From Candidatus Lloydbacteria bacterium RIFCSPHIGHO2_02_FULL_50_18 (lineage in GTDB: Bacteria > Patescibacteriota > Minisyncoccia > Phycocordibacterales > UBA6899): a stretch of DNA of 64,000 bases. The stretch is from NCBI GenBank assembly GCA_001821395.1, contig MHLM01000015.1, forward strand, positions 2,293 to 66,292, read 5' to 3'. Of the stretch, positions 1,998 to 61,120 are shown piece after piece; position 1 is the stretch's first letter; every line of letters begins with the position of its first letter. Under the pieces are notes generated by a model that made no database searches, was not told where the DNA came from, and was given only the letters and a program-made list of their open reading frames with translations. The translations under genes and the position numbers were made by a program.

Positions 1998-2240
1998 CTA
2001 TTTTTTCAGAAAAATCCACACAAATTGAACCCCATACCACAGATACCATGCTAACCATAAAACGAAATATGGTTGCAACTGGTGCAACTAATAGAATAAA
2101 TATATGCAATTTTTAAAATTAAGTCAAAAAATGGACATACTGAAGCCCTTTTCTGCCATTCTCGCTTCAAGAATGAACGGAGTGTCATTAGGAAAAATTG
2201 GTCGCGCAAAGCTCTTCGATTCCTGTTGGAGGAAATTCCA

Positions 2241-2280
2241 ATGCCGGGAATCTCGGCTACCGCCGCGGGTGATATTCAAT
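2241..2280. repeat. tRNA-Pro 3'-end fragment (atgccgggaatc) fused to a conserved 34-nt element GGAATCTCGGCTACCGCCGCGGGTGATATTCAAT; attR-like scar
   Basis: 12 nt identical to the tRNA-Pro T-stem/T-loop region at 2531-2542. The following 34 nt are identical to 22816-22849, and a degenerate copy lies at 15126-15158. Confidence 0.6.
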
Positions 2281-2480
2281 CTCGACGACTCGATAATGAA
2301 TATCCTTTCGATTCTCGTCGACAGTGCCGCAGAGTGAGAATCGGTCACGAGTTACTAAGCTTTTTATTTCGCTACGCTCATAAAAATCTAAGTACTCTCG
2401 ACCCCGACTCGCTCGCCTCGAAGACTCGGCATAGCTCCGTCTTTCGATCCCCGGGCGGGACTGAGGCAGCTCAGTCCCTC

Positions 2481-2532
2481 ATCCCGACCATATGAAAAAA
2501 CACCTGATGGCGTTTTTTCATATGGTCGGGAT
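2481..2532 (-). terminator. Extended palindrome / intrinsic terminator overlapping the tRNA-Pro 3' end
   Basis: ATCCCGACCATATG-AAAAAA-[CACCTGATGGCG]-TTTTTT-CATATGGTCGGGAT. The outer arms are an inverted copy of the tRNA 3' terminus. The inner stem is flanked by A6/T6 tracts, so it could terminate in either direction. Confidence 0.6.
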
Positions 2533-3008: not shown

Positions 3009-4790
3009 TTACCAACTTCCGCCACCACCGCCACCACCACCGCCTCCCGACATACCTCCCCCGCCCGAACCTCCGCCCGCACTTGCGAACGCAGTGCCCG
3101 CACTCGTACTAAAGGCCCCCATCGAAGCTGCCAGCGCGGCCGCATTAAACCGTACCCCGCCGCCCTGGTACCAACGTTCGGCATCTTTCTTCGTGTACAT
3201 GTCCACAAACTTTTCCGCCCAGGCTTTCTCGACACCAAAGATCATCGCGTATGGAAGAAATCGTTCAAACGTTTTTGGCTCTTTTTCCGGTGCGTTTGCA
3301 AAATCGATGCGATCCTTCTCCGCAACGGAGAGATATTCCTTAAACCCCTCGATCTCTTCACGCGCAATAGCACCCTGCTGTGTCCGTTTGCCCATAAAGT
3401 ATCCGAAGACCGTGACGATGACACCTGAAACAATGAGTGCCAAATTCCCGAATGAAAGCAGTGAGCCGATGACTATCAATGCGATACCTGTCAGCACGTA
3501 ATTCCTCGTCGTGACCTGCGGATCCGTTTCAAAATAACCCAAAGAGGTGAGATCGACAGCGATGAGCTTTGATAGTTCACTCCTCACATCGACAAACTTG
3601 TGCGCAAGGGTTGATACGAGCACCGTTTCCCCGCTCGCACGAAGCGTATCGTAAAGCATTTTTTCCGGTGCAGTAAGCAGGCTCGTATCAACGCCGGGGA
3701 GAAAATGCAGTCGATGATCTTCGTTTGTGACCAACAGTCTCTTTTTCTTCGTACGCTCGATAGTGAGCAATCCGCGCACGGCGAAGTCGATGATCGCTGC
3801 TGATATTGTTTTGGGCTTGAGATCCGAGTGATACAAATATCCGAGCTCAAGTGTCGTCAAATGCTTCGGTATATCGTATTGCGCGATGATCGTCCCCCGG
3901 CCTTTTGGATCGCGACCCTTTTTCCACCAGATATTCCACATGACCACGAATACGACAAGCGGTATGAGTGCACTCATGCCAAGAAAATCATTTTTCCACC
4001 AGCGATAGAATCCCACACTGTCTGCGAGTTTTTTCACCGATGACTTTGGAGCAATGAGGAATATGCCCTTCGGTATCCCTACGGCAACGGTCATTCCCTC
4101 ATTTGAGTGCAGCGAGCCATCATAGGTAAAACGTACGGAATTGATGATTCCCGTTCCCTCTTGCGGAGTGGACGATGCGGTGCACAATGCAGTGCTTCCC
4201 AGGGGACCAACATAACACGCACTTGAAATACTATTTTCGTTGAGCGGAAGCGGCAGGATCACGTCAGTACGTACTGCGGCGATAGTTTGCTTCCATTCAT
4301 TCCCCGTGACATTCCAATAGAACTCATCCTTGCCTGCCAACCCCTGATTGATCGCACCCCAGACCGTGTAATGAATGACGTAGAGCTGTCTTCCCGTGAC
4401 CTCAACATCAGGGTCGCCGATCTTCAACTCCATATAATTCCCTCCGCCCGAATACTTCGACTCCCGGAGGTTTCCCTTGCCGTCCGTGACCATGATACTT
4501 GAGATCTCTATGCTGCGTGCTGCACGCTCTCCCGGAACGGTGAAAGTGAGCGGAATGCGACGATAGATCCCATGTCGCACTTCACCATCCGGATTAAAAC
4601 TATAGACGATCTCTTCTTGCACGACAGCACTACCGTTCGGTTTCAACTCGATATGCGCAGTGAATGCGTCGATAGAGTCATCCGCGAACGCGAAAAAAGG
4701 CGTCAAAAAAAAGAAAGCAGCACAGACCAGTCGAAGAAACCGATGATCAGTCATTGTCACCGAGCTTCTTTTTAACGTCCTCGAATTCAT
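3009..4790 (-). CDS. DUF2207-family membrane protein with C-terminal poly-Gly tail
   Basis: Signal/anchor at the N-terminus, a large extracytoplasmic domain, TM helices mid-protein and a C-terminal GGGSGGGGMSGGGGGGGGGG tail: the architecture typical of DUF2207 proteins. Confidence 0.7.
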   Translation of the reverse strand: MNSRTLKRSSVTMTDHRFLRLVCAAFFFLTPFFAFADDSIDAFTAHIELKPNGSAVVQEEIVYSFNPDGEVRHGIYRRIPLTFTVPGERAARSIEISSIMVTDGKGNLRESKYSGGGNYMELKIGDPDVEVTGRQLYVIHYTVWGAINQGLAGKDEFYWNVTGNEWKQTIAAVRTDVILPLPLNENSISSACYVGPLGSTALCTASSTPQEGTGIINSVRFTYDGSLHSNEGMTVAVGIPKGIFLIAPKSSVKKLADSVGFYRWWKNDFLGMSALIPLVVFVVMWNIWWKKGRDPKGRGTIIAQYDIPKHLTTLELGYLYHSDLKPKTISAAIIDFAVRGLLTIERTKKKRLLVTNEDHRLHFLPGVDTSLLTAPEKMLYDTLRASGETVLVSTLAHKFVDVRSELSKLIAVDLTSLGYFETDPQVTTRNYVLTGIALIVIGSLLSFGNLALIVSGVIVTVFGYFMGKRTQQGAIAREEIEGFKEYLSVAEKDRIDFANAPEKEPKTFERFLPYAMIFGVEKAWAEKFVDMYTKKDAERWYQGGGVRFNAAALAASMGAFSTSAGTAFASAGGGSGGGGMSGGGGGGGGGGSW

Positions 4791-4956
4791 TTTCCAATTC
4801 CTTAAGACGCTCTTTACTTGCCTTGATAAGCTCGGCCCCTTCCTTCACTTTCTCAATCCCTTTTTCAACGTCGATCTCTTCTTGCGACTCGAACCACTCC
4901 GTGATGGCGCGAAGTTTTTTCATCATCTCGGTTATATTGGCTGTGCTTTTTGGCAT
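4747..4956 (-). CDS. xseB: Exodeoxyribonuclease VII small subunit
   Basis: 69 aa helical protein (ITEWFESQEEIDVEKGIEKVKEGAELIKASKERLKELENE) matching the XseB family. It lies immediately downstream of xseA. Confidence 0.8.
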   Translation of the reverse strand: MPKSTANITEMMKKLRAITEWFESQEEIDVEKGIEKVKEGAELIKASKERLKELENEFEDVKKKLGDND

Positions 4957-12752: not shown

Positions 12753-13228
12753 CTGCCGGAAAACTCATCATGACCGCCCGAAAGAAACTCTTCGATCCTC
12801 CGTTTTGTCGCAGGGGCGATATCTTCCGGCAGTTGATCGATCGGAAAAAAGCGACGCTCCGCGATCTCAAGATTCGGCCTCCAAAGATCAAGCTCCTCCC
12901 ACTCACCGGCCACATACACATGCATCGTGATCGTCGTAAAAAAACGTTTCTCAGAGTAGGTACCGAGTTTGCGCACGATATTTCTGATGAACACCCGAGC
13001 CTCCTCTTTGGTCTCTCGGATAGCGGCGGACTCCGGTGCCTCAAGCGACTCGATCTTTCCTCCGGGAAACTCCCAGTGAGGACGATAAGTTGTCTTGATC
13101 AGCAAAATTTCCCCATGCCGTTCGACGAGGGCTTGTGCACCGTTCAGCTGGATTCCTAATAACGATTCCGCACCGACAAGCGTACGGTACAGATAATTGA
13201 GGGCTGGAGAATAGGTGATCATACTCAA
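12746..13228 (-). CDS. NUDIX hydrolase
   Basis: Nudix box GGKIESLEAPESAAIRETKEEARV. Confidence 0.8.
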   Translation of the reverse strand: MSMITYSPALNYLYRTLVGAESLLGIQLNGAQALVERHGEILLIKTTYRPHWEFPGGKIESLEAPESAAIRETKEEARVFIRNIVRKLGTYSEKRFFTTITMHVYVAGEWEELDLWRPNLEIAERRFFPIDQLPEDIAPATKRRIEEFLSGGHDEFSGSW

Positions 13229-15057
13229 TTATATCCTACTGCCTGGAGGGCAAAAAGTCGTGCGTATTCTCCCCCAAGAGCGACCAGCTCCTCGTGGGTC
13301 CCCGACTCCTTGATCGTCCCGTCCAAGAGTACGATGATCTTGTCAGCGTGCCGCACCGTAGAAAATCGGTGTGAGATAAGGATGACGGTGCGGTCCTTCG
13401 GCAGTGCTTCAAGCTTTTCAAAGATGTGCGCCTCAGATTCGGCATCGACCGAGGCGGTCGGCTCATCGAATATCCATATCCGTGGATCGCGATAAAAGAC
13501 CCGTGCGATGGCAAGCTTCTGTTTTTGCCCAATGGACGGCTCGATGCCATTATCAAACTCTTTCCCCAGTACCGAGTCGTACCCTTTCGGCAGATTCCCG
13601 ACAAAAGATTCGGCCTCGCTTTTCATCGCCGCATCCTCGATCAGGTGCATGTCTTCCGAGCTCGATGAATCACCCAATGCGATCGCTTCTTTGATCGTAA
13701 AACTGTCATAGGTCGAATATTCCTGAAAGAGCGCGCCGATCATTCCATACCAGCTCTTCTGTTCGACCAACCGCAGGTCTGTTCCATCGACCGTGATCTT
13801 CCCCATGGTGGGGTCGTAAAAGCGCGCGAGCAATTTGATGAGCGTTGTCTTCCCCGCCCCGTTCAATCCGACGATGGCGAGCTTTGTTCCGGCGGGAATA
13901 TGCAGATCAATATCGCGGAGGATCGGGGTAGTCGAATCCGGATATGAAAAATCAACATGATCAAATACGATATCGGGCGTCTTAGCGGAGTCCAATATGA
14001 TGGGGTGTTCCGCCTCCGCAATCATCCCGGGAAGATCGAGCAGCTTGAACACATCCGTGACGAAAAGATTATCCTGGTACTGGACGCCGAGATTCGAAAA
14101 GAACCCTGAGAGCGACATACTCAGTCCCCCCATCGAGGAAAGAAGGAACACGAAAGTACCGATGGCGATCTCACCGGCGAGCACCTGATGCACGAACCAC
14201 AACGCAGAGATACCAATAGTAAGCTGTGCAAAAAATTGGGTTGAGAGCTGAAGCAGTAACTTGTGACGATCTGCACGAATTTGTTCAGACTGAAATGAGG
14301 CATACAGTTCACCGATAAGTGACATGAATTTTTTCACATTCTGGAACAGTTTGAGTTCGATCAGATGTCGCACGTGCACGGTATGCTCCGTAAGTGCCCA
14401 GAATCGCCGCCGACGCGCCGCCCCCGAGCCATAGATACTCCACACCTCTCTTCCGTATTTTATCTCTATATAAAGGCTGGGTATCGTACCGACCACGAGC
14501 AAAAGGAGCAGCCACCACGTCGCATATCCCAATACGACCATAGCGATGATGATCTCAAAAATATTCTGCAAAATGAAAAGTTGACGACTTGCAAAACTCT
14601 CCATACGCCACACACCGCTTTCTTTCACCTTAAGAAAGATATCCTGCAATGCGGGGTCCTCGTGACTGGCAACATCAAGCACGGCCATCTTGGAATACAC
14701 GAGCATCGTAAACAATTCCTCAAAATAAAAACGAAATACCTTGTTGTAATACCACTGAAGCGTATAGACGAGCGGGGGCAAGACCTCCGAAAAGATCAGA
14801 AACCCCACATACAGCAATATCTCTTTATCGAAAACGCCTTTTCCTACGGCACCCAAAAGATGGTTAATGAGCAGAGCCACTGCGCCCGTCCGCAGAAACG
14901 GCATCGCTGCGCCGAATACATACAATGCACCAACGGAAGTCAGAAGCAATTTTCGTCCTCCCCAGACGATAAGCCAAACACGCTTCATGTTGATGAGCGT
15001 TGAGACGAGCGCAGACAAGCGCAGTGTTTCTTGATGTTCAGGGTTCGATCGTGGCAT
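13225..15057 (-). CDS. ABC exporter, fused permease + ATPase (MsbA-like)
   Basis: Six-TM N-terminal domain; Walker A GLNGAGKTT, signature LSGGQKQKLAIAR, Walker B IWIFDEPTASVD. Confidence 0.9.
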   Translation of the reverse strand: MPRSNPEHQETLRLSALVSTLINMKRVWLIVWGGRKLLLTSVGALYVFGAAMPFLRTGAVALLINHLLGAVGKGVFDKEILLYVGFLIFSEVLPPLVYTLQWYYNKVFRFYFEELFTMLVYSKMAVLDVASHEDPALQDIFLKVKESGVWRMESFASRQLFILQNIFEIIIAMVVLGYATWWLLLLLVVGTIPSLYIEIKYGREVWSIYGSGAARRRRFWALTEHTVHVRHLIELKLFQNVKKFMSLIGELYASFQSEQIRADRHKLLLQLSTQFFAQLTIGISALWFVHQVLAGEIAIGTFVFLLSSMGGLSMSLSGFFSNLGVQYQDNLFVTDVFKLLDLPGMIAEAEHPIILDSAKTPDIVFDHVDFSYPDSTTPILRDIDLHIPAGTKLAIVGLNGAGKTTLIKLLARFYDPTMGKITVDGTDLRLVEQKSWYGMIGALFQEYSTYDSFTIKEAIALGDSSSSEDMHLIEDAAMKSEAESFVGNLPKGYDSVLGKEFDNGIEPSIGQKQKLAIARVFYRDPRIWIFDEPTASVDAESEAHIFEKLEALPKDRTVILISHRFSTVRHADKIIVLLDGTIKESGTHEELVALGGEYARLFALQAVGYN

Positions 15058-15111
15058 ACATACTGAGGCGTTAAGCCTCGACGCTCATTTTAACATATTT
15101 AACGCCCTAGC

Positions 15112-15160
15112 TGTGGACCATAACGGAATCTCCACCTACCGTGGCGGGTGGATTCTCCTA
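15112..15160. repeat. Degenerate direct repeat of the tRNA-Ala(GGC) 3' end plus a degenerate copy of the conserved arm element; putative attR of the defense island
   Basis: gtggaccat matches the tRNA-Ala(GGC) acceptor 3' strand at 22272-22280. The following aacggaatctccacctaccgtggcgggtggattctcc is ~75% identical to GGAATCTCGGCTACCGCCGCGGGTGATATTC. Confidence 0.5.
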
Positions 15161-15177
15161 CGGAACAATACAAATTG

Positions 15178-17535
15178 CTATTTTACCCCCGCGTACAAAC
15201 TTCTCTGGAAATCAAAAAAGGTCGAGCGAATAGCGTCTACATCCCCGAGAATATCCACCGCATCAGCAATAGCGTGATATTTCAAATTGAGCAATTGCGG
15301 GAGCTTTTCTTCGTCGAGCTCCTCGACTCCGCGCTCGACATACTTAGCAAGTACGAACTCAAGAAAATCTTTTTGATCATCATTCAATCCGCCCAAGATT
15401 GCACTCTTGGCACCCAAAACACGATCGACGCGCGAGATTGGCTGTACGCAAAACGAGACATAAGCGAGCACGTCAAACAAATCACTGTTTTCCGCATCGA
15501 TCATCTTTTGAAGTATCTCAAGCTCATCCTTCCCATACCCCGCCTCAGCAAGCTTATCGAGAAATACTTTTCTCGTACTTGGATTGGCCCAAATTTCACG
15601 AAGCTCAACTTCATTCTTATAAAATGAAGGGAGTGCACCGAACATGTTGTTCATAAATTCCTCTACCGAGATCGGCTTCCCATCTGCGCTCCAAAATGAG
15701 GTGGAGATCATATGCTTTATTTCTCGATCCTTTCCATCCCGCAACTTTATTTTAAGCTTTTGTATGGGTGGAGGCACATCGCACACGCACGGCTTCTGTC
15801 CGCACACAACGCATGGCGCGGTCGGAGGCTTCACACACACACAGGGCGTCATACCACATGCTGCACAGGGTTGTTTCGGCGCTGGCTCCACTATCGGCTC
15901 ATCAATGGGCTCTCCGTCCCACTCAGGGTCAGCGAAGTGATGATACGCATCCACAAAGTCATAGATAGTGAAATACTCCTTTCCGTCAAAGAGCCGAGTT
16001 CCTCGTCCAACGATCTGCTTAAACTCAATCATGGAGTTTACGGGGCGCATCAGTACAATATTGCGAATGTTTCGCGCATCGACTCCCGTCGAGAGCTTTT
16101 GTGAGGTAGTGAGGATGGTGGGGATACTTTTTTCATTATCCTGGAATTCTTTCAAATACTGATCCCCGCGAGCACCGTCATTGGCCGTCACGCGCACACA
16201 ATAATTTGGCTCAGTGCTCTCTTTCATCTGATTCACCAAGTCACGCACTGCGAGTGCATGGTCTTGTGTTGCGCAAAAGATAATAGTCTTTTCGTTTTGA
16301 TTTATCTCCTCAAGTATGACGCGTACACGCTTCGCCTCACGCTCCTTGATCTCGATGATCTTATTAAAGTCCGCCTCTTCGTAGATTTTTCCTTCCTCCA
16401 CTTCCCCCTCGATGATCTGGTCGTCCGAAGTGTACACATAATCATCCATCGTCGTCTTGATACGCTTCACCTTAAATGGCGTCAGAAATCCGTCATTCAC
16501 TCCGGTTTTGAGCGAGTAAGTGTATACGGGCTTTCCGAAATAGTTGTAGGTGTCCACGTTGTCTTGCCTGCGTGGCGTCGCGGTGAGCCCAAGGTGTACC
16601 GCAGGCGCGAAGTGCTCGAGGATCGCTCGCCAATTGCTCTCATCGTTCGCACCCCCACGATGACACTCGTCAATAATGATCAGATCAAAAAAGTCCGAGG
16701 GATAGTCCCCGAAATATGGCGAACCATTTTGCCCGCTCATAAAAGTCTGGAATATGGTGAAAAAGATGCTCCCATTTGTGGGCACAGCACCCTTCTTCCG
16801 TATATCAAGTGGATTAATGCGCACAAGTGCATCCTCATGGAAAGCCGAGAATGAATTAAATGCCTGATTTGCTAAAATATTTCTGTCGGCAAGAAAGAGG
16901 ATTCTCGGGCGCCTCCCTCCATCTCGCGCCAAGTTCCATCGTGACTGAAAAAGCTTCCACGCGATCTGAAATGCAATAAAAGTTTTCCCCGTGCCTGTCG
17001 CAAGCGTTAGAAGCGCCCGTTGCTTGTTTTCCGCAATTGCATCGAGTGTATTGTTCACGGCAATTTCTTGATAGTATCGCGCACTCTTTGTGCCGTTCAT
17101 ATCCTCAAACGGGACAGCGGCAAATTTCTCCTTCCATGCATTTTGGTCAGAATAGACCATGTTCCATAATTCATCAGGAGTCGGGAAACGTTCCACATAT
17201 TTCTCCGCACCCGTCTCCATGCATATCTCGTATATTTCTTTGCCGTTAGTGGCATAGGTATATTTGATCTCAAGTTTCTCAGCATAAGCCTTCGCCTGTG
17301 CGACGCCCTCCGTCGCCGAGAGTCCCTCATGCTTTGCCTCCACAACCCCGATCTTCATGTTTTTATAAACCAAAATATAGTCAGCGATCTCAGGCTTCCC
17401 GCGTACTCCACCAGTCATAATGCGTCCGAGGGTTATGCGAAACTCCCGCAGGACCTTCGATCCCTCGATCTCGCCCCATCCGGCTTCTTTCAGCTTCGGA
17501 TCAACATATTCCGCTCGTGTTTCAGATTCATTCAT
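15178..17535 (-). CDS. hsdR: Type I restriction enzyme R subunit
   Basis: N-terminal PD-(D/E)XK (ADYILVY...VVEAKH), helicase motifs LATGTGKT / DECH, typical HsdR layout. The C-terminal third carries an unusual Cys-rich tandem motif. Confidence 0.9.
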   Translation of the reverse strand: MNESETRAEYVDPKLKEAGWGEIEGSKVLREFRITLGRIMTGGVRGKPEIADYILVYKNMKIGVVEAKHEGLSATEGVAQAKAYAEKLEIKYTYATNGKEIYEICMETGAEKYVERFPTPDELWNMVYSDQNAWKEKFAAVPFEDMNGTKSARYYQEIAVNNTLDAIAENKQRALLTLATGTGKTFIAFQIAWKLFQSRWNLARDGGRRPRILFLADRNILANQAFNSFSAFHEDALVRINPLDIRKKGAVPTNGSIFFTIFQTFMSGQNGSPYFGDYPSDFFDLIIIDECHRGGANDESNWRAILEHFAPAVHLGLTATPRRQDNVDTYNYFGKPVYTYSLKTGVNDGFLTPFKVKRIKTTMDDYVYTSDDQIIEGEVEEGKIYEEADFNKIIEIKEREAKRVRVILEEINQNEKTIIFCATQDHALAVRDLVNQMKESTEPNYCVRVTANDGARGDQYLKEFQDNEKSIPTILTTSQKLSTGVDARNIRNIVLMRPVNSMIEFKQIVGRGTRLFDGKEYFTIYDFVDAYHHFADPEWDGEPIDEPIVEPAPKQPCAACGMTPCVCVKPPTAPCVVCGQKPCVCDVPPPIQKLKIKLRDGKDREIKHMISTSFWSADGKPISVEEFMNNMFGALPSFYKNEVELREIWANPSTRKVFLDKLAEAGYGKDELEILQKMIDAENSDLFDVLAYVSFCVQPISRVDRVLGAKSAILGGLNDDQKDFLEFVLAKYVERGVEELDEEKLPQLLNLKYHAIADAVDILGDVDAIRSTFFDFQRSLYAGVK

Positions 17536-18185
17536 GATGATTGTTTCGCACCATACTGCTTAACTGCCACACCGTCATATCTTTCTTTGAGTCCCTCATA
17601 AATAAGACTCACGAGGGGCTTATAATCATCGGCATGATCGATTTGCGCAAGCGCCTGACGGTAGCGATTCTTATTTTCCTTTTCTACTTTTATTGATATA
17701 CCAATTAACCCGTAGCGCTCCAAAATCAAATTCGCAGCAAGACGAGCAGTGCGTCCGTTCCCATCCCGAAATGGATGAACGCAGGTGATAGAATAATGCA
17801 ACCATGCCGCCAGATGAATAACTCGCTCAACCGTCTGATGGACTTTCGCCATGCTTACATTTTTTCCTCTTATTATTCCCTCTGCTTTATCTAGCGCTTG
17901 TAATTTTTTCTGCAACTCGACCTCCCTTTCGTTCATGAGGTCATTTATTTTTGAGTGATGAGGGGGGACGTGACTTGAGTCTGTTATTTCAAGATTTTCC
18001 GTTCTATACTTTCCCGCAATATCAGGCCAGGCATCTTTGAATATTTCCCGATGAATTTCCTTGATCGTTTCAATCGAAATACCCTTGTGTGATCGTGCAA
18101 ATTTTCTTACAAAACGAGAAGCGCGGATCACTCCAATCGCTTCTCGTTTTTGTAACTCTTCTTCCGAGCGCGGACACTCTACCAT
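17532..18185 (-). CDS. Fic/Doc family protein (AMPylator-type toxin domain)
   Basis: Canonical Fic motif HPFRDGNGRTARL. Confidence 0.85.
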   Translation of the reverse strand: MVECPRSEEELQKREAIGVIRASRFVRKFARSHKGISIETIKEIHREIFKDAWPDIAGKYRTENLEITDSSHVPPHHSKINDLMNEREVELQKKLQALDKAEGIIRGKNVSMAKVHQTVERVIHLAAWLHYSITCVHPFRDGNGRTARLAANLILERYGLIGISIKVEKENKNRYRQALAQIDHADDYKPLVSLIYEGLKERYDGVAVKQYGAKQSS

Positions 18186-18193
18186 GGCAATGC

Positions 18194-18388
18194 TTACGCT
18201 ACTTTTAGCGCAAGTTTTTCAAATTCCCCGCGATCAAGCTTGCTTCCCTCAAGCGCACTCGAATAATAGGCATGCTCAATATCCCAACTTTTTTCAAGGG
18301 CGGATTTTTGTTTTGGCGTAAGCTGAGAAATCTGTCGTTCTGCAACTTTCTTACTCGCCATTAACTGTACGAGCCGTAGATTCTTCAT
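18194..18388 (-). CDS. FicA-like small protein carrying the Fic inhibitory motif (SxxxEG); separate antitoxin-like gene or frameshifted N-terminus of Fic
   Basis: 64 aa; ...IEHAYYSSALEGSKLD contains S-x-x-x-E-G. Its stop lies 8 nt upstream of the Fic ATG, in a different frame. Confidence 0.5.
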   Translation of the reverse strand: MKNLRLVQLMASKKVAERQISQLTPKQKSALEKSWDIEHAYYSSALEGSKLDRGEFEKLALKVA

Positions 18389-18480
18389 GGATATGACTAT
18401 ACCACTATTTGACTATTTTACAACTCCTCATGTTTCAGGGGTGACTCCTTGGCCTTGAAAGGTGTCTCCTCGGAAACTGC

Positions 18481-19686
18481 TCACAACTCCCCAGCAAAGG
18501 CCTTTTTCAACACTGATTTTTTAAGCTCCTCAATATCAGCAAGTTTTTGCCCGTAGATTCCTTCAAGTTTTTTTGTCTGCTCCGCAAGCGCATCGAGCTT
18601 TTTGACGATGGTTTTTTGCTCTGAGACAGATGGAAATGGAAACCGCTCATGCTCAAACGTTGCCATGTTGATATTGGCCTGCGCACTTCCTTTTCCTTTT
18701 GCCTGGAGTACTGCCTTAAATGATTGCAAAAGATACTCGACAAAATTAGTATCTGCAATTTTGGGATTAGCAACAAGTCCGATCACGCTATCAGGAAAAC
18801 ACGCATCGAAATTCAGAATTCCAGTTTCTGCGATATTCGCCGCAATCGTAATGCAGATAGTTCCTCTCGGCCACAGCTTGCTCTGCGCCAGTCCCGCCTC
18901 GCTATACGACTGTGAGTACTCCACAATAAAGTGTCCAGAATTTCGAATATCTCCCGTCTGAATAAAGGGGTACTTTCCGCCATAGAGTTTTTTGTCGTTT
19001 CTTGGGCGATGCTTAGATTTTCCTCTGCCGAATTGCAGGGAGACTTCTTCTAGCGTCTTTTTCTCCCATTTCGAATTTTCAAAAACCCCCTGCAAATACG
19101 ATTCAAAAAGTTCGCGGGAATTCTTCAAATTCTTCTCCGCATTCTCCTTCGCCTTCTCCACTCCCTCAAAAACCTCATCAAGAATTTTTACGATGCGCTT
19201 TTGCTCGATCGCAGAAGGAAAAGGTATCTCAACCTCTTTTAATTTTGTTCCAGAAAGTTCCTTAAAAGTTGTACCACTACCCAAACTATTCAAAAGTTCA
19301 ACTGAATCTTTCAAAAAATAATAGAGAAATTTTGTATCAAGATTTTTATTCGGTATTAATCCCTTACACCCCTGATTTGTTGAAATTTCTTTTGTGTTTA
19401 TCGCCAAGTGACCAATCGGAGCACGGGTAGACAAAATAATCGAGTTGGGTGGAATGATTTTTGCTGACGACCTTTCTAATCCAGCCTTTGAAATTTTTCG
19501 TTCTGTTTCCTCAACGTATATTTTCCTAAGTCTCCCCATGTCTTTGGGTGTGATCCACAAAATATTTCCATCCCAGTACCTCAAAACGCCCGTTTTAGGA
19601 GTTCCTCCGTTTACAATCTCGCAAACCTCCCCAAGTTTTTTTATTTGCCAGTTAGTTTTCATAGTGAGAAATAATTTGCTTTCCAT
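18481..19686 (-). CDS. hsdS: Type I restriction-modification specificity subunit
   Basis: Two target-recognition-domain halves with conserved HsdS N-terminal and central repeats (EVCEIVNGGTPKTG...; ...VSEQKTIVKKLDAL). Confidence 0.85.
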   Translation of the reverse strand: MESKLFLTMKTNWQIKKLGEVCEIVNGGTPKTGVLRYWDGNILWITPKDMGRLRKIYVEETERKISKAGLERSSAKIIPPNSIILSTRAPIGHLAINTKEISTNQGCKGLIPNKNLDTKFLYYFLKDSVELLNSLGSGTTFKELSGTKLKEVEIPFPSAIEQKRIVKILDEVFEGVEKAKENAEKNLKNSRELFESYLQGVFENSKWEKKTLEEVSLQFGRGKSKHRPRNDKKLYGGKYPFIQTGDIRNSGHFIVEYSQSYSEAGLAQSKLWPRGTICITIAANIAETGILNFDACFPDSVIGLVANPKIADTNFVEYLLQSFKAVLQAKGKGSAQANINMATFEHERFPFPSVSEQKTIVKKLDALAEQTKKLEGIYGQKLADIEELKKSVLKKAFAGEL

Positions 19687-20821
19687 TCTGTATCAATTGG
19701 TCGTAAGTGAGAATGTCTATATCATGTAAACTAGAGTTTAAAAAATGAAGAGCTTTTTTCTCATCCTCAGTAAAGGCATCTGACCGACCGAGAATGAGCT
19801 GGACTCTTGGTCTTAGTATTCGAACAGAGTGCTGAATCGACAAAGTTTTTTTATAGTCTTCGATTCTTTGTAAATAAATTAAGGACTGACCAATTGCTTC
19901 CGAGAAAGGGCTCGTAGGGAAATGGCAACGATGCGAAGTATCATATCTAAACAGCGGGCTGCCGACACTTGGCCTCTTAACTTCAATGAGGCTGATAAAT
20001 CCATCGGGCGTTTCGAGTACGATGTCTGCCTCAGAGTTATCTTCTCCAATCTTCCTGAATGTGTGCTTTTTGTAGTACTCGACTCCAAAAACCCACAAAT
20101 TAGCCCCAATCCATTTATGAAACACACCCTCTGGTTGATTTGCGTGATATTTCTTTAGTGCACCATTTCCTTTTATTGCCTCAAGGAAATTCACGTCAGA
20201 TTCGATGCTTAAAAGGTATTCTAAATTAGCAATAGCCTCTTTGTGTTCTTTTTGTTTTATTGCTGCGCTCAAACTCTCGACGTCAAGGGCATCAATATTC
20301 TCAATAAACTTCTGAAATAAACTATTTCTTTCAGCGGTGCCCAACTTATTAAAAAGCTGAAACAGCTGATCAGATGTTAATGCTTGCGACCCATGCAATA
20401 ACTGTGAAAATGCATTCTTTCGCTCCACAAGTTCACTTACGTTTTGATCAGTAAATTTTAAATTTTCCTTAGAAGTTAAGTCCAGTAAATCTAATGATTC
20501 AAGAAACTTAATAAAGCGAGTAAGTGCTCCTCCATGAAAACTGAAAGATTGATTATGTGGTATGCCAGTATCTTTTGAAAATCTTTGAATGCGCAATGAA
20601 AACCCAGTGGTGTCTTGATTATAAATAGCGGTTATTTCTTGCACTGCGCTTTCGCGTATGACCTCAAAAACTTTCTTTTCTTTTTGATCGTTATAAAAAT
20701 CTTTAAAATCTTTTAGCTCAAATACTTTTGAAATGTATCTGATGTTCCCATCTTTCCCAATCGCCCTACTCACATAAGTAAGTGCGGGGTCTTTTTTGAT
20801 CGCATACTCTCCATTGCTCAT
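19652..20821 (-). CDS. Shedu-like (DUF4263-type) PD-(D/E)XK nuclease embedded between hsdM and hsdS
   Basis: C-terminal nuclease core LWVFGVEYYKK...EADIVLETPDGFISLIEVKRPS (D...E-V-K). Size and layout resemble SduA. It overlaps hsdM by 4 nt and hsdS by ~11-35 nt, so it is operonic. Confidence 0.55.
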   Translation of the reverse strand: MSNGEYAIKKDPALTYVSRAIGKDGNIRYISKVFELKDFKDFYNDQKEKKVFEVIRESAVQEITAIYNQDTTGFSLRIQRFSKDTGIPHNQSFSFHGGALTRFIKFLESLDLLDLTSKENLKFTDQNVSELVERKNAFSQLLHGSQALTSDQLFQLFNKLGTAERNSLFQKFIENIDALDVESLSAAIKQKEHKEAIANLEYLLSIESDVNFLEAIKGNGALKKYHANQPEGVFHKWIGANLWVFGVEYYKKHTFRKIGEDNSEADIVLETPDGFISLIEVKRPSVGSPLFRYDTSHRCHFPTSPFSEAIGQSLIYLQRIEDYKKTLSIQHSVRILRPRVQLILGRSDAFTEDEKKALHFLNSSLHDIDILTYDQLIQNGKQIISHYEN

Positions 20822-22263
20822 AACAAGTTTTTCAATATCTGAGCACTTTCTTTATCCAATTTCTCCATTTCCTTCAAAATCTCCTTCGGGGTGCGCAGCG
20901 CTACCTCACCTCCCTTGTTTGGATTCTTTGCCGATAGGTCGAAGGTCTTCTGGTCGACGTCTTTTATGTCTATGCTCCATGAATTTTCAGAATCACCATT
21001 CGTCTCTTGGAGTTTTATAAAATCAGCAAGGTCGGCTTCGTTGAGTGCATTGGTCTTGCCGAGGTTGCGGTCGAGGTTGAGCTGATAGAACCAGACTTTT
21101 TTCGTTGGTGCACCCTTCTCAAAAAAGAGTATGACCGTTTTCACCCCTGCACCAGTGAATGTGCCACCTGGCAGGTCGAGCACGGTGTGGAGATTGCAAC
21201 TTTCAAGCAGCATTTTGCGAAGCGACACCGAAGCATTGTCGGTGTTGGAAAGAAAGGTGTTTTTGATGACCACACCCGCTTTTCCTCCGGCTTTCAGCAT
21301 TTTGATGAAATGCTGGAGAAAAAGAAATGCCGTCTCTCCCGTTTTGATAGGAAAATTCTGCTGTACCTCAGGTCTCTCTGAGCCTCCAAATGGCGGATTC
21401 GCAAGCACGATCTCATAGCGGTCTTTCTCCTGAATATCCGCAAGGTTTTCGGCAAGTGTGTTGGTGTGAATGATGTTCGGAGCCTCGATGCCATGGAGAA
21501 TCATGTTCATGATGCCAATGATGTAGGCGAGCGATTTCTTCTCCTTGCCGTAAAATGTCTTCTTCTGAAGTGTCTGCATGTCGCTTGTCGAAAGCTTCTT
21601 GCTCTCCTTCAAGTATTCAAACGCTTCCACGAGGAATCCCGCCGAGCCCACAGCCCCATCATAGACTTTATCGCCGATTTTTGGAGCGACCACCTTCACG
21701 ATGGTCTTGATGAGTGGGCGCGGGGTGTAGTACTCGCCACCATTGCGCCCTGCGTTGCCCATGTTCTTTATCTTGCCCTCGTAAAGGTGTGAAAGCTCGT
21801 GCTTTTCGCTCTGCGAGCGAAAGTGCATTCCATCCACGAGGTTCAGCACCTCGCGGAGGTTGTACCCACTTTGTATCTTGTTTTTGATCTCGCTAAAAAT
21901 TTCTCCGATCTTGTACTCGATCGTGTCGGGACTCACTGCATCCGCCTTGAATTTCTTGAAATACGGAAAAAGCTCGCGCTCGACGAAATCCTTAAGGTCA
22001 TCACCCGACAGTGCTTTGCTGTGGTCAATCTTCTTATCTCCTGTCTTGGGCACTGCCCACACTTCCCAGCGAAACTTCGGCGAGATGATATATTCGTATT
22101 TTTTACCTGCGAGCTTCGCCTCGGTCTCCTTATCCTTTTCAAGATCATCAAGATACTTGAGAAAGAGCACCCACGAAGTCTGCTCGATATAATCCAGCTC
22201 ACTCGACGCCCCCGCATCCTTACGCAATATGTCATCAATATTTTTAAAGTGTTGTTCAAACAT
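20818..22263 (-). CDS. hsdM: Type I restriction-modification DNA methyltransferase subunit
   Basis: N6-adenine MTase motifs including LANPPFGGSE and an HsdM N-terminal domain. The ORF-track N-extension to 22314 overlaps the tRNA. The real start is MFEQHF at 22263, 7 nt after the tRNA 3' end. Confidence 0.9.
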   Translation of the reverse strand: MFEQHFKNIDDILRKDAGASSELDYIEQTSWVLFLKYLDDLEKDKETEAKLAGKKYEYIISPKFRWEVWAVPKTGDKKIDHSKALSGDDLKDFVERELFPYFKKFKADAVSPDTIEYKIGEIFSEIKNKIQSGYNLREVLNLVDGMHFRSQSEKHELSHLYEGKIKNMGNAGRNGGEYYTPRPLIKTIVKVVAPKIGDKVYDGAVGSAGFLVEAFEYLKESKKLSTSDMQTLQKKTFYGKEKKSLAYIIGIMNMILHGIEAPNIIHTNTLAENLADIQEKDRYEIVLANPPFGGSERPEVQQNFPIKTGETAFLFLQHFIKMLKAGGKAGVVIKNTFLSNTDNASVSLRKMLLESCNLHTVLDLPGGTFTGAGVKTVILFFEKGAPTKKVWFYQLNLDRNLGKTNALNEADLADFIKLQETNGDSENSWSIDIKDVDQKTFDLSAKNPNKGGEVALRTPKEILKEMEKLDKESAQILKNLL

Positions 22264-22269
22264 TTTTTT

Positions 22270-22345
22270 TGGTGGACCATGGGAGAATCGAACTCCCCAC
22301 CTCTTCCATGCCATGGAAGCGCTCTACCAAATGAGCTAATGGCCC
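22270..22345 (-). tRNA. tRNA-Ala (anticodon GGC), G3:U70, CCA encoded
   Basis: Manual fold: acceptor GGGCCAT/ATGGTCC with G3:U70, anticodon stem CTTCC/GGAAG with loop ATGGCAT, T-arm GGGAG-TTCGATT-CTCCC, then ACCA. Confidence 0.85.
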
Positions 22346-22640
22346 GTAGAAAGATGATAACTTACAAATGGGTTTTCTTCAATGAAGACGGGGGGGGTCG
22401 AGTCGTGAAGGGAGTCGAAGCTTATTCGAGATCGTCATCGCAAGCTTTGTGGAGATGGCAAGTCGTGTAGTGCGTTGCCGGAGGGCAACACTGCTACGAA
22501 AAAGCCAACCGGGTGTCTGGCTTTGCGGACTTGGCTTACAGCTTCAGTACGCCTTTTCGATTTATTCAGAGCGAAGCTCTTCATAAATAACGAAAAGCCC
22601 TTCGACTCCCCGCCGCAAGTGAAGCAGTTCACTTGCTTGA

Positions 22641-22694
22641 GTCCACAGGTACAAAAAAATTACGATTTCTCGTAATTTTTTTGTACCTGTGGAC
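22641..22694 (-). terminator. Perfect 54-nt palindrome / intrinsic terminator overlapping the tRNA-Ala(CGC) 3' end
   Basis: GTCCACAGGTAC-AAAAAAA-TTACGA-ttct-TCGTAA-TTTTTTT-GTACCTGTGGAC. The 3' arm includes the first nucleotides of the tRNA 3' terminus. Confidence 0.6.
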
Positions 22695-22760
22695 TCACGG
22701 GGAGTCGAACCCCGGACTCGGCAATGCGAATGCCGTGTAATACCACTTTACTATGAGCCC
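22690..22760 (-). tRNA. tRNA-Ala (anticodon CGC), G3:U70, no CCA encoded
   Basis: Manual fold: acceptor GGGCTCA/TGAGTCC (G3:U70), anticodon stem CGGCA/TGCCG with loop TTCGCAT, T-arm CGGGG-TTCGACT-CCCCG, discriminator A. Confidence 0.8.
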
Positions 22761-22805
22761 AGTAGGCGAATAGTAGCGAATTTATCCGTGGGGTGCAAAT
22801 TGTTG

Positions 22806-22849
22806 GACCGTACAGGAATCTCGGCTACCGCCGCGGGTGATATTCAATT
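22806..22849. repeat. tRNA-Ala(TGC) 3'-end fragment (tggaccgtacagga) fused to the conserved 34-nt element; attR-like scar
   Basis: 14 nt identical to the acceptor/T-stem of tRNA-Ala(TGC) at 23197-23210. It is followed by aatctcggctaccgccgcgggtgatattcaat, identical to 2247-2280. Confidence 0.6.
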
Positions 22850-23141
22850 TCGTACAGGAATTTCGACGCCTACTGCGTCAGTACCCAGTTTCAATTTGAA
22901 TACAGGACTCTTCCTCTACGAGGACAGTATACCTTTCACCACAGAGAGTACTTCTTGTTTTCTAGCTCACTTCGTTCGTAAGTAAACAATGTCGTCCGTT
23001 TACTGAGGATAAGAATCCTGCCGTACAGGAATCTCTCCCCTTACAGGGGCAGTGTCCAGTTTCGATTTACTCAAAATAGGAATTTCTCGTAAATATCGAA
23101 ACAGGCTTCGAGTCCTTACGCAAGCAATGCAGATTGCTTGC

Positions 23142-23206
23142 TACGGTCCACACCATATAAGAAAAAACTGCCTTACGGCAGTTTTTACTTTATGGTGTGG
23201 ACCGTA
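23142..23206 (-). terminator. Extended hairpin / terminator overlapping the tRNA-Ala(TGC) 3' end
   Basis: ctacggtccacaccata-aagaaaaaa-CTGCC-ttac-GGCAG-ttttta-ctttatggtgtggaccgta: GC stem flanked by A/T tracts. The outer arms are an inverted copy of the tRNA acceptor 3' strand. Confidence 0.55.
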
Positions 23207-59866: not shown

Positions 59867-60091
59867 TTATTTTGTGGGAACTCCAAGCTTTTGAAGCAAT
59901 ATCGCCGACGGACAGTATCCGGTCATTGCAAAAATGATCTGCATGCATCCGATAAGTGCAGTAACGGCGAGCCACCAAAGTTCCCGGAAATATACCGCGA
60001 GGCCGACCGAAACAAGCACGAATAATCCGGCAAGAAGATAAACAACGCGGGTGACATACCAATGTGATGTCTCAAGACGAAATATATTCAT
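59867..60091 (-). CDS. DUF2892 (YgaP-like) small inner-membrane protein
   Basis: 74 aa, two TM helices with TGYCPSAILLQKLGV, which is DUF2892-like. Confidence 0.55.
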   Translation of the reverse strand: MNIFRLETSHWYVTRVVYLLAGLFVLVSVGLAVYFRELWWLAVTALIGCMQIIFAMTGYCPSAILLQKLGVPTK

Positions 60092-60190
60092 AGAGATAAT
60101 ATAAATTTTTTAACAATAACTAAATGCGTTGCAGTACGAGTTCTTTCGTGCGGCGTCAGAGAAATACGTTTATTTCGCGAGCGACTCCAC

Positions 60191-61093
60191 TTAGCCCCTC
60201 TTGAGATACACCTTTACAAAACTGCTTTTCATTTCTGCCGCTTTTGCTGAAAGAGCTTCTGTGTCATTTGTTTTGGAGAGATCTAAGAGCTGCTCTAAAT
60301 TTTGTCGAATTGTTTGGATCTCGGTATCATTTGCAACCTCTTCTACAGCCTTGAGCCTGTCGCTTACAAGAGGATATGTCGCGATGACAAGTTCCGGATC
60401 TTTTGCATCTGCTGCTGCAATGATCGTCTCCATCGCATCATGAAAATCAACAAGGGATACCGCAAGCATCGAGAAGGCATTGCGCTTCAATATGTTCTGA
60501 AATACCGGACGGACCTGTTCAAGGTCAAGGTGTGCTGATTTAAGATCACCAGATAATATCTTATCCCTGGGCATGGCGATCATCGTGGCGATCCGATCAA
60601 GGTCTTCGTTGAATTGTGCATCATGCGAAACAACATAGGGATGATAACCTTGATACTTGGAACGAAAGTCCGCATATGCCGATTGTAGCTCAGTATAGTT
60701 TTTTACTGATTGTTCTCGATCTATCTGCCCGGTGTAAAACAATGCTTGTTTATAGGATTGATTCATTGCAGTGTAATCATCGAGGAAGATCTTCTTTGTA
60801 AAAAAGTTGCTCGCATAGCCACCTCCGATCACGATAAGCAACGACACAAAAAATAGAATACCAATTCCTGTTTTTGATAAAAGTTTTTCATGCGACGAAC
60901 AGGTGCTGATCCCAAATATTTTATACAATCCGCAATATCCGACGATCGCCGTCACCAGCATAATCAAACCAATAAGATAAAATGCGATCTGTAAAATACC
61001 TCCAAGCCAAAAAAAGCCAAGCAAAAATAATATCTCGGACAATATTAGCCGTGTCCCTCTATCCGCTATCCCTTCATTTTTTACAATATTCAT
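60191..61093 (-). CDS. Membrane protein with a DUF2892-like N-terminus and a ~200 aa soluble domain
   Basis: N-terminal two-TM module with GYCGLYKIFGISTC, then a helical soluble domain. Directly downstream of the first CsoR/CstR gene. Confidence 0.5.
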   Translation of the reverse strand: MNIVKNEGIADRGTRLILSEILFLLGFFWLGGILQIAFYLIGLIMLVTAIVGYCGLYKIFGISTCSSHEKLLSKTGIGILFFVSLLIVIGGGYASNFFTKKIFLDDYTAMNQSYKQALFYTGQIDREQSVKNYTELQSAYADFRSKYQGYHPYVVSHDAQFNEDLDRIATMIAMPRDKILSGDLKSAHLDLEQVRPVFQNILKRNAFSMLAVSLVDFHDAMETIIAAADAKDPELVIATYPLVSDRLKAVEEVANDTEIQTIRQNLEQLLDLSKTNDTEALSAKAAEMKSSFVKVYLKRG

Positions 61094-61120
61094 ATGTGAA
61101 CGGTGATTTAATAAATAATG

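Follow-up and report, generated by a model that had tools for sequence, protein, structure and literature searches.

A type IB restriction-modification operon with nested Shedu and Fic genes directly behind a tRNA-Ala gene in Candidatus Lloydbacteria

A 7.09 kb defence cluster in a genome of Candidatus Lloydbacteria, within the candidate phyla radiation (CPR), starts directly behind a tRNA-Ala(GGC) gene, and the question is whether it was inserted there by an integrase or came to its place in another way. The locus was analysed in its surroundings of 64,000 nucleotides (64 kb, hereafter the window), and the SduA protein encoded in the cluster is 100% identical to a protein annotated in Ca. Lloydbacteria bacterium RIFCSPHIGHO2_01_FULL. 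On the minus strand, to which the coordinates of the cluster refer throughout, ddl is followed by three tRNA-Ala genes, the last of them tRNA-Ala(GGC) (22270-22345, with encoded CCA; detected by ARAGORN and by Rfam at 60.7 bits), and then by hsdM, sduA, hsdS, a ficA-like open reading frame (ORF), fic and hsdR, downstream of which lies the gene of an ATP-binding cassette (ABC) transporter (13225-15057). An earlier sequence-only reading had placed hsdM right behind the tRNA end at 22270 and had taken the whole for an integrated island whose recombinase is missing. The first point is confirmed, as the hsdM ATG at 22263 is separated from the tRNA CCA by six A's (22264-22269), read directly from the sequence. 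With regard to the second, the account that we regard as probable, albeit by no means assured, is that a horizontally acquired type IB restriction-modification (RM) operon with two accessory slots is fused to the tRNA and lodged in its trailing module, the array of hairpins and tRNA-end copies that also follows other tRNA genes of this lineage, and that the repeat at the far end of the cluster is a part of this module and no proof of insertion by an integrase.

The identity of the operon follows from its three hsd genes. The 481-residue product of hsdM (20818-22263) is a type I N6-adenine methyltransferase (Pfam N6_Mtase at 2e-63 together with HsdM_N; PADLOC MTase_I at 7e-162), and hsdS (18481-19686 for the longest ORF, called start at 19662) encodes a specificity subunit with two target-recognition domains, matched in two stretches by Pfam Methylase_S (5e-60) and by PADLOC Specificity_I (4e-122). 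The third gene, hsdR (15178-17535), encodes a restriction subunit of 785 residues with an SF2 helicase/translocase core and a C-terminal domain typical of its family (Pfam ResIII, Helicase_C and EcoEI_R_C). Since HsdR passes the cut-off of the EcoAI/FtnUII equivalog NF046051 (817 bits against 550, over residues 1-781), the system is assigned to type IB (EcoAI family), for which methylation and ATP-dependent restriction are predicted. Unrelated defence genes were found inside this type I RM operon, with sduA (19652-20821, 389 residues), predicted to encode a Shedu PD-(D/E)xK nuclease, between hsdM and hsdS, and a pair consisting of the 64-residue ficA-like ORF (18194-18388) and fic (17532-18185), the latter a Fic/Doc-family AMP-transferase gene, between hsdS and hsdR. 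The earlier description of a stacked defence locus of hsdM, a DUF4263-like PD-(D/E)XK gene, hsdS, a FicA-like ORF, Fic and hsdR was correct in its coordinates as well as in its gene calls.

Comparison with other hsd operons points to a mobile scaffold. HsdR homologues with 74-86% identity occur across Patescibacteria, and in Uhr-, Zambryski-, Komeili- and Portnoybacteria the protein is still 74-79% identical, compared with only ~48% for the neighbouring ABC core protein in such taxa. As the identity of HsdR across classes far exceeds that of the adjacent ABC protein, these values indicate that the RM scaffold spreads horizontally within Patescibacteria/CPR. In the nearest operon, located on contig L178, HsdM is 87% and HsdR 86% identical to the proteins of the window, and nucleotide homology begins precisely at the hsdM ATG (22263) and at the hsdR ATG (17535), the middle being unrelated. 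The L178 operon (contig positions 1-9534) consists of a helix-turn-helix (HTH) gene, hsdM, an AriA-like ATPase gene, hsdS, a 231-residue ORF, an HTH-SocA/Panacea protein gene, a 116-residue ORF and hsdR, and has no tRNA in its upstream context. Here the AriA-like ATPase (PARIS/OLD-type) occupies the first slot, and the antitoxin-like HTH-SocA/Panacea gene occupies the second together with two ORFs of unknown function. The operon of the window may accordingly be described as a scaffold with two slots, the hsdM/hsdS slot holding sduA and the hsdS/hsdR slot holding the FicA-like/Fic pair of toxin-antitoxin type, in which hsdS and the accessory genes would be exchanged between the conserved hsdM and hsdR flanks.

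The base composition of the cluster is divided along the same lines. The GC content of sduA, hsdS, ficA and fic is 0.37-0.43, compared with ~0.49 for the window, and the GC content at third codon positions (GC3) lies below the host range of 0.50-0.62 in all four (0.35 for sduA, 0.42 for hsdS and 0.39 for ficA/fic), with values of 0.60 for hsdM and 0.54 for hsdR. The AT-rich interior that had been seen at 18.4-20.8 kb is real, albeit longer than described (~17.5 to 20.8 kb), and it marks the middle of the operon only. Likewise, the GC and tetranucleotide comparison suggested for the whole of 15.1-22.3 kb yielded an outlier (z 3.4-4.7, relative to the whole window) at 18-21 kb only, hsdM and hsdR being host-like. 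The L178 operon also combines GC-normal flanks with an AT-rich middle. Thus, the AT-rich interior is the swappable middle of the hsd operon and not the whole island, because hsdM and hsdR are host-like and the L178 middle is unrelated yet AT-rich.

The interval between tRNA-Ala(GGC) and the ABC gene was then compared among relatives identified through the ABC protein. All 12 contigs with an identical ABC protein also hold the RM cluster, and the five of these that were compared are 99.98-100% identical to the window and represent one strain. In contig L006 (ABC 75% identical), ddl and the tRNA-Ala genes TGC, CGC and GGC are followed by five unrelated genes in 4.7 kb, encoding an HTH protein, an extracytoplasmic function (ECF) sigma factor, and membrane and unknown proteins, and then by the ABC gene. 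Its upstream region (15058-15110 in the window, GGCGTTAAATATGTTAAAATGA compared with GGCGGTAAATGTGCTAAAGTGA in L006) is shared and forms the right-hand end of the variable interval. A single 194-residue ORF stands between tRNA-Ala(GGC) and the ABC gene in L158 (ABC 64% identical), and a different small ORF upstream of the ABC gene in L157 (69% identical). The RM cluster is missing from the ABC-gene neighbourhood in L006, L157 and L158, and the genes that these relatives hold in the interval have no counterpart anywhere in the 64-kb window. The interval is a hypervariable hotspot, as three relatives keep the tRNA-Ala(GGC)/ABC neighbourhood yet hold different, unrelated genes in it, and among the species sampled the RM cluster is specific to one. 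A scan of genome contigs returned only L006 and L007 (ABC 68% identical, contig too short) as ABC relatives, a metagenome scan returned one 45% relative without the tRNAs, and in ABC homologues at ~50% identity synteny is gone. As to the empty site expected in relatives, the RM genes are absent, but a clean junction of tRNA-Ala(GGC) and ABC was not found in these relatives, of which the best is 75% identical in ABC, other genes being held there instead.

These comparisons also bear on the possibility that the operon was already present here ancestrally, its absence from the sampled relatives being due to loss or replacement, and that no insertion took place in the present lineage. The host-like codon composition of hsdM and hsdR would agree with such a history, as would the presence of the cluster in 12 of the 12 contigs with an identical ABC protein, of which the five compared are a single strain. 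Nevertheless, we consider it highly improbable, and the least likely of the explanations discussed here, since L006, L157 and L158 lack the cluster and each carry different genes upstream of ABC, since an HsdR identity of 74-79% to distant Patescibacteria classes, against ~48% for the core neighbour, argues for transfer, and since the nearest operon, in L178, stands in another upstream context with an HTH gene and no tRNA.

The far end of the cluster, behind hsdR, carries three elements that relate to the tRNA. A degenerate T-run and an inverted copy of the tRNA-Ala(GGC) 3' end (15151-15174, TTTGTATTGTTCCGTAGGAGAATC) start 3 nt after the hsdR stop; this inverted copy, which the sequence-only reading had missed, matches at 17 of 24 positions (P about 8.5e-4 in a location-specific test). 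It is followed by a hairpin with a GTA loop (CCAC-GGTAG-GTGG, 15132-15144), which belongs to the terminal unit of the trailing module, and by AGATTCC, to which a second, direct copy is attached (15113-15131, ..GTTATGGTCCAC). This copy repeats the 3' strand of T-stem and acceptor of tRNA-Ala(GGC) and matches at 14 of 20 positions (P about 0.005 in the corresponding test) with four consecutive mismatches in the T-stem. The far-end element as a whole (15112-15160) aligns at 29 of 37 positions to a 34-nt element that occurs exactly at 2247-2273 and 22815-22841, and apart from that family itself no better match exists in the window; among 40 random 64-kb sequences, 1 reached a score of 32 or more. 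The earlier observation of a degenerate copy of the 34-nt element, itself exact at two other tRNA loci, therefore holds. Relative to the hairpin CGGC-GGTA-GCCG of that element, the far-end hairpin shows compensatory changes, CGGC/GCCG having become CCAC/GTGG. The element was not detected by blastn at E<0.05, and its homology was established from gapped pairwise alignment, the covariation in the hairpin and the location-specific tests. Rfam searches of the RM far end gave nothing credible even at permissive E-values. An integron attC site was rejected as an identity for the palindrome, the R'/R'' consensus (GTTRRRY/RYYYAAC) being absent from the sequence. A viral origin of the repeat unit was rejected as well, as the 34-nt-type pattern had no IMG/VR match and the 13 matches to a looser pattern were unrelated coding sequence.

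The same layout of inverted copy, GTA-loop hairpin and direct copy constitutes the distal part of the trailing modules, which are present after tRNA-Pro, tRNA-Ala(TGC) and tRNA-Ala(CGC) of the window and after the three orthologous tRNA-Ala genes of L006 (window 2236-2522, 22346-22688 and 22800-23196, minus strand; L006 4034-4360, 5008-5212 and 5285-5650). At the start of each module, a terminator stem-loop lies between an A-run and a T-run, in a palindrome that reaches into the 3' strand of the tRNA acceptor. An inverted T-loop/T-stem copy follows, into which a hairpin of ~22 nt is inserted in three loci, then long hairpin modules, and finally 1-4 units, each composed of a 4-5-bp hairpin with an xGTAx loop, (A)GAGATTCC, and a direct copy of the 3' strand of the upstream tRNA. 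At each locus the inverted and the direct copies match that locus's own tRNA. The last 10 nt of tRNA-Ala(CGC) form part of an inverted repeat at 22638-22697, perfect over 28 bp around a spacer of 4 nt, and in its L006 counterpart the terminator sequence is wholly different while the palindrome, including the tRNA end, is retained. Eleven units, among which 9 different 5' stem sequences occur, show pairing at 40 of 44 stem positions, and 3 of the 4 unpaired positions come from one unit (win_CGC_u1) that was entered in the wrong stem register. Between the window and L006, 13 of the 53 predicted pairs of the Ala(CGC) module have both partners changed, with no pair lost, and the Ala(TGC) module has a folding z of -5.4. 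The modules seem to be selected for their structure. No further copies were found in the 64 kb and no Rfam family was matched, only the four tRNAs reaching gathering score and nothing credible appearing at permissive E-values. Among ~28 tRNAs of unrelated taxa the pattern was absent, except for three tRNA-Arg genes in Bacteriovoracaceae contigs.

The tRNA-Ala(GGC) locus can be aligned to this scheme. At the other tRNAs of the window an A-run stands ahead of the terminator stem, and the A6 spacer is its counterpart; the operon, from its first ATG to its last stop codon, fills exactly the position of the terminator stem-loop, flanked by the A-run and a T-run-like sequence. L006 has trailing modules yet no RM genes, and the three other tRNAs of the window are followed by modules that carry no cargo. 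The direct repeat within 15112-15160 (15113-15131), which had been taken for the scar of an integration event, is real and non-random (14 of 20, P about 0.005), but it is not specific to the island, as such units also stand behind tRNAs that have no cargo. The order of the parts is likewise informative. Classical integration leaves the tRNA, the island, the displaced tRNA end and then the original tRNA trailer, whereas here the tRNA is followed by the cargo, the inverted copy, the hairpin, the direct copy and finally the ABC promoter, which is conserved with L006 from about 15110. The repeat is therefore interpreted as the tRNA's own trailing module and not as an attachment-site (att) scar, because like units flank cargo-less modules and the order departs from the classical one. 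A locus in an alternative state, with the tRNA followed by ATGGTCCACAG and then by ABC, would instead favour classical integration.

An explanation by a classical tRNA-targeting island would have a tyrosine integrase insert the 7.1 kb into the 3' end of tRNA-Ala(GGC), with duplication of attL/attR and later deletion of both the integrase and the att arms. Several features agree with it, namely that the cluster adjoins the tRNA 3' end and bears a distal direct copy of that end, that it is absent at the same locus in related species, that the RM scaffold is clearly mobile horizontally, and that the 34-nt element common to three tRNA loci could be a shared attP arm. We nevertheless judge this explanation unlikely, if still worth serious attention. 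As had been claimed, no recombinase is encoded nearby, neither in the six ORFs of the island nor in any ORF of appreciable size across the 64 kb. The same cargo was also looked for beside an integrase, but the closest HsdR and five SduA homologues had none in their neighbourhoods. With the hsdM ATG 6 nt from the tRNA there is no space for an att arm; the repeat matches at only 14 of 20 positions with four consecutive T-stem mismatches; the displaced end runs straight into the ABC promoter, and not into the tRNA's terminator and trailer, and is preceded by an inverted copy; hairpins with tRNA 3'-strand copies are also found at cargo-less modules, with compensatory changes across species; and hsdM and hsdR are host-like in composition. 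Of the proposal of an integrated island, the lineage-specific presence of the cluster and the variable interval next to the tRNA stand, while the repeat, the composition and the order fit classical integration poorly. Insertion would most likely have proceeded by recombination at the palindromic terminator or by exchange through conserved flanks, and ancient integrase action is conceivable as the route.

A further alternative places mobility in the modules themselves, which would be miniature integrative elements, or landing pads, served by a recombinase in trans, with ends that imitate the 3' end of the tRNA directly as well as inverted and with the RM operon as cargo in the 'terminator slot'. 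This is consistent with the match of the inverted and direct copies to each locus's own tRNA and with the position of the cargo, which the palindrome's A-run and T-run flank exactly. It is also consistent with two signs of turnover. The stretches 2247-2284 and 22815-22852 (minus strand), which belong to the tRNA-Pro and tRNA-Ala(TGC) modules and lie 20 kb apart, are 97% identical over 38 nt while the remainders of the two modules differ, which suggests that the terminal unit was recently copied, or gene-converted, from one locus to the other, and at the Ala(TGC) locus the window holds two more units than L006. On the other side, the modules are conserved in orthologous position at the same tRNAs in a species whose core protein is only 75% identical, and the changes are purely compensatory, which points to selection on a host structure; moreover, no recombinase was identified in the window, no matches in viral contigs were obtained, and a single cargo-bearing example is known. 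In this form the alternative is very unlikely. Decidedly doubtful, albeit slightly less so, is the wider proposition that the modules constitute a new class of element, either att-like landing pads or miniature integrative elements with the recombinase elsewhere, or tRNA-derived structured RNAs; under the former version, landing pads or miniature elements, the RM operon would be cargo at the apex of the terminator palindrome, expressed as a tRNA trailer.

Several points weigh against a horizontally acquired operon lodged in the trailing module of its tRNA, the account preferred here. Should a family of mobile elements turn out to use the modules as its att sites, the integrative interpretation would return in modified form. 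The copies at the far end are modest, with just 17 of 24 matches for the inverted and just 14 of 20 for the direct one, and the alignment of the far-end element to the region upstream of ABC in L006 is ambiguous beyond the ABC promoter and was not used as evidence. The search for a recombinase covered 64 kb of the genome, and the direction of the event, a gain here versus a loss elsewhere, as well as its age are inferred from sampled relatives that are not close. Finally, co-transcription with the tRNA, although most likely, is deduced from spacing and consensus scans.

Concerning expression, a promoter-like site (TTGAAG-17-TATCAT, 22354-22382) lies upstream of tRNA-Ala(GGC), and a terminator hairpin, present after the other three tRNAs of the window, is missing after this one. 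Readthrough from the tRNA promoter into hsdM is likely, because the ATG follows the CCA by 6 nt and no terminator intervenes. The genes had been described as running with overlaps of 4-35 nt in a single transcription unit. The overlaps are found between hsdM and sduA (4 nt), sduA and hsdS (11-35 nt) and fic and hsdR (4 nt), but the 64-residue ORF is set off by gaps of 92 nt from hsdS and 8 nt from fic, and the 92-nt gap contains a second promoter-like site with an extended -10 (TTGTAA-16-TG-TATAGT, 18396-18423); both sites are consensus matches only. The cluster therefore probably comprises two transcription units and not one. In this arrangement hsdM-sduA-hsdS would be read from the tRNA promoter and set free, with hardly any leader, when the tRNA 3' end is processed, and ficA-fic-hsdR would form a unit with an additional promoter of its own. 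The thrU-tyrU-glyT-thrT-tufB operon of Escherichia coli is a known case of tRNA-mRNA co-transcription, and the two loci are alike in that a protein gene stands directly downstream of a tRNA with no terminator or promoter between. They differ in the 6-nt spacing seen here, which would give an almost leaderless mRNA, and in the cargo, a predicted defence operon.

The assignment of sduA to the Shedu family is supported at several levels. SduA matches Pfam SduA_C (PF14082) with 52.9 bits against a cut-off of 27 (6e-14) and PADLOC SduA with 1e-33, and all 28 aligned homologues share D266, E280 and K282. As no solved relative was obtained by sequence search, a comparison of folds was required. An AlphaFold (AF2) model with a mean predicted local distance difference test (pLDDT) score of 77.8 gave 8ps5, 8ps4 and 8ti9 as best Foldseek matches with probability 1.00, with 8ti8 also among the best; these structures are E. 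coli SduA (8ps5, 8ps4) and Bacillus cereus Shedu (8ti8, 8ti9). The protein thus resembles the solved Shedu proteins in its SduA_C domain, its invariant D...ExK residues and, as far as the model goes, its best-matching predicted fold, and it differs in a sequence identity of 15-17% and in the translational coupling of its gene to hsdM. An N-terminal beta-rich domain (~10-100), modelled with moderate confidence, was assigned to no known sensor type. In 5 of the 5 other contexts examined, SduA homologues (52-75% identical) are encoded outside hsd operons, their neighbours comprising no detected defence gene (in Sedimentisphaerales and another bacterium) or genes for Abi_C, DpnI and GmrSD. Judged by its sequence, sduA is a Shedu gene of stand-alone type with a predicted anti-phage role. 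One of its homologues (52% identical) is found on a Parcubacteria contig (L161, 3537-8483), in a defence cluster right after a ribosomal-protein operon that also encodes a SoFic-like Fic protein, an EcoRI-type methylase and a GmrSD/HNH protein.

The Fic protein carries the motif HPFRDGNGRTAR, which agrees with the canonical HPFx(D/E)GNGRxxR, and is matched by Pfam Fic (2e-20) and by the PADLOC models PDC-S04 (1e-23) and SoFic (2e-21). The 64-residue ORF upstream of it has no match among the profile models of Pfam, PADLOC and NCBIfam, and is called FicA-like from motif and position only, its SSALEG fitting the inhibitory FicA motif (S/T)xxxE(G/N). It is a putative FicA-type antitoxin of the predicted Fic toxin. 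The pair resembles class I Fic/FicA systems (VbhA-type) in combining a canonical Fic motif with an inhibitory motif on a small ORF, here 8 nt upstream. Among solved structures, however, the Fic protein is closest to class II FICD proteins, whose inhibitory helix belongs to the same chain and not, as here, to a separate small ORF, and for this reason the pair may alternatively be a split class II Fic protein. From what is known of the families, the defence encoded by the whole cluster would combine predicted methylation-guided restriction with a nuclease that senses DNA ends and with an AMPylating toxin serving as an abortive-infection or addiction back-up.

Defence genes within type I RM systems are already documented, and the present locus is a further case in a CPR host, the trailing modules being potentially of more interest. 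CPR bacteria, or Patescibacteria, have tiny genomes, and defence by restriction is regarded as central in them; to our knowledge, most of them lack CRISPR. One type IB hsd scaffold circulating across CPR classes with two swap-in slots would amount to compact stacking of immunity in a very small genome, and the direct fusion of tRNA and hsdM suggests a defence operon that makes use of a tRNA promoter and of tRNA processing. For the calling of islands, the locus advises caution, as a far-side copy of a tRNA end is no proof of insertion by an integrase where the lineage has tRNA-end repeats anyway.

Elsewhere, type I RM, BREX and DISARM systems have been reported to harbour thousands of embedded genes, and PrrC, which is present in EcoprrI, occurs almost exclusively in type I RM systems (Payne et al. 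2024, bioRxiv 10.1101/2024.01.29.577857). Similarly, TgvAB lies inside the type I RM system of Vibrio pathogenicity island 2 (VPI-2) of Vibrio cholerae, a tRNA-integrated island that encodes integrase genes (PMC12409362). The operon of the window shares with EcoprrI and VPI-2 the placement of accessory defence or toxin genes between hsd genes in the same orientation, and departs from them in having Shedu in the first slot and the FicA-like/Fic pair in the second, and in its CPR host. PrrC is functionally linked to the RM complex, whereas the nested genes described here are known from sequence alone. With VPI-2-type islands the locus has in common a defence cluster at a tRNA 3' end, a copy of the tRNA end on the far side and absence from related species. 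It differs from them in that there is no integrase in the window and no space for att arms, that the repeat is short, degenerate and placed behind an inverted copy, that repeat units also stand behind cargo-less tRNAs, and that foreign composition is restricted to the middle of the operon.

Three further observations concern the surroundings of the locus. In L006, the spacer that separates tRNA-Ala(CGC) from the trailing module of tRNA-Ala(TGC) contains a 139-residue ORF without a Pfam match (4424-4843). The window has no such ORF, and the spacers between the tRNAs are therefore also variable. On another CPR contig (L156, 2624-12022), an ABC homologue is located beside a HicA toxin gene and a run of genes resembling those of type IV secretion and conjugation, which encode PrgI, a TraC-like protein, a TraG-type P-loop ATPase and a type IV secretion system pilin. 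Lastly, a second dip in GC content (0.416) occurs at 60001-61100 of the window, at the gene of a 300-residue YgaP-like membrane protein (GC3 0.41), which may be another recent acquisition.

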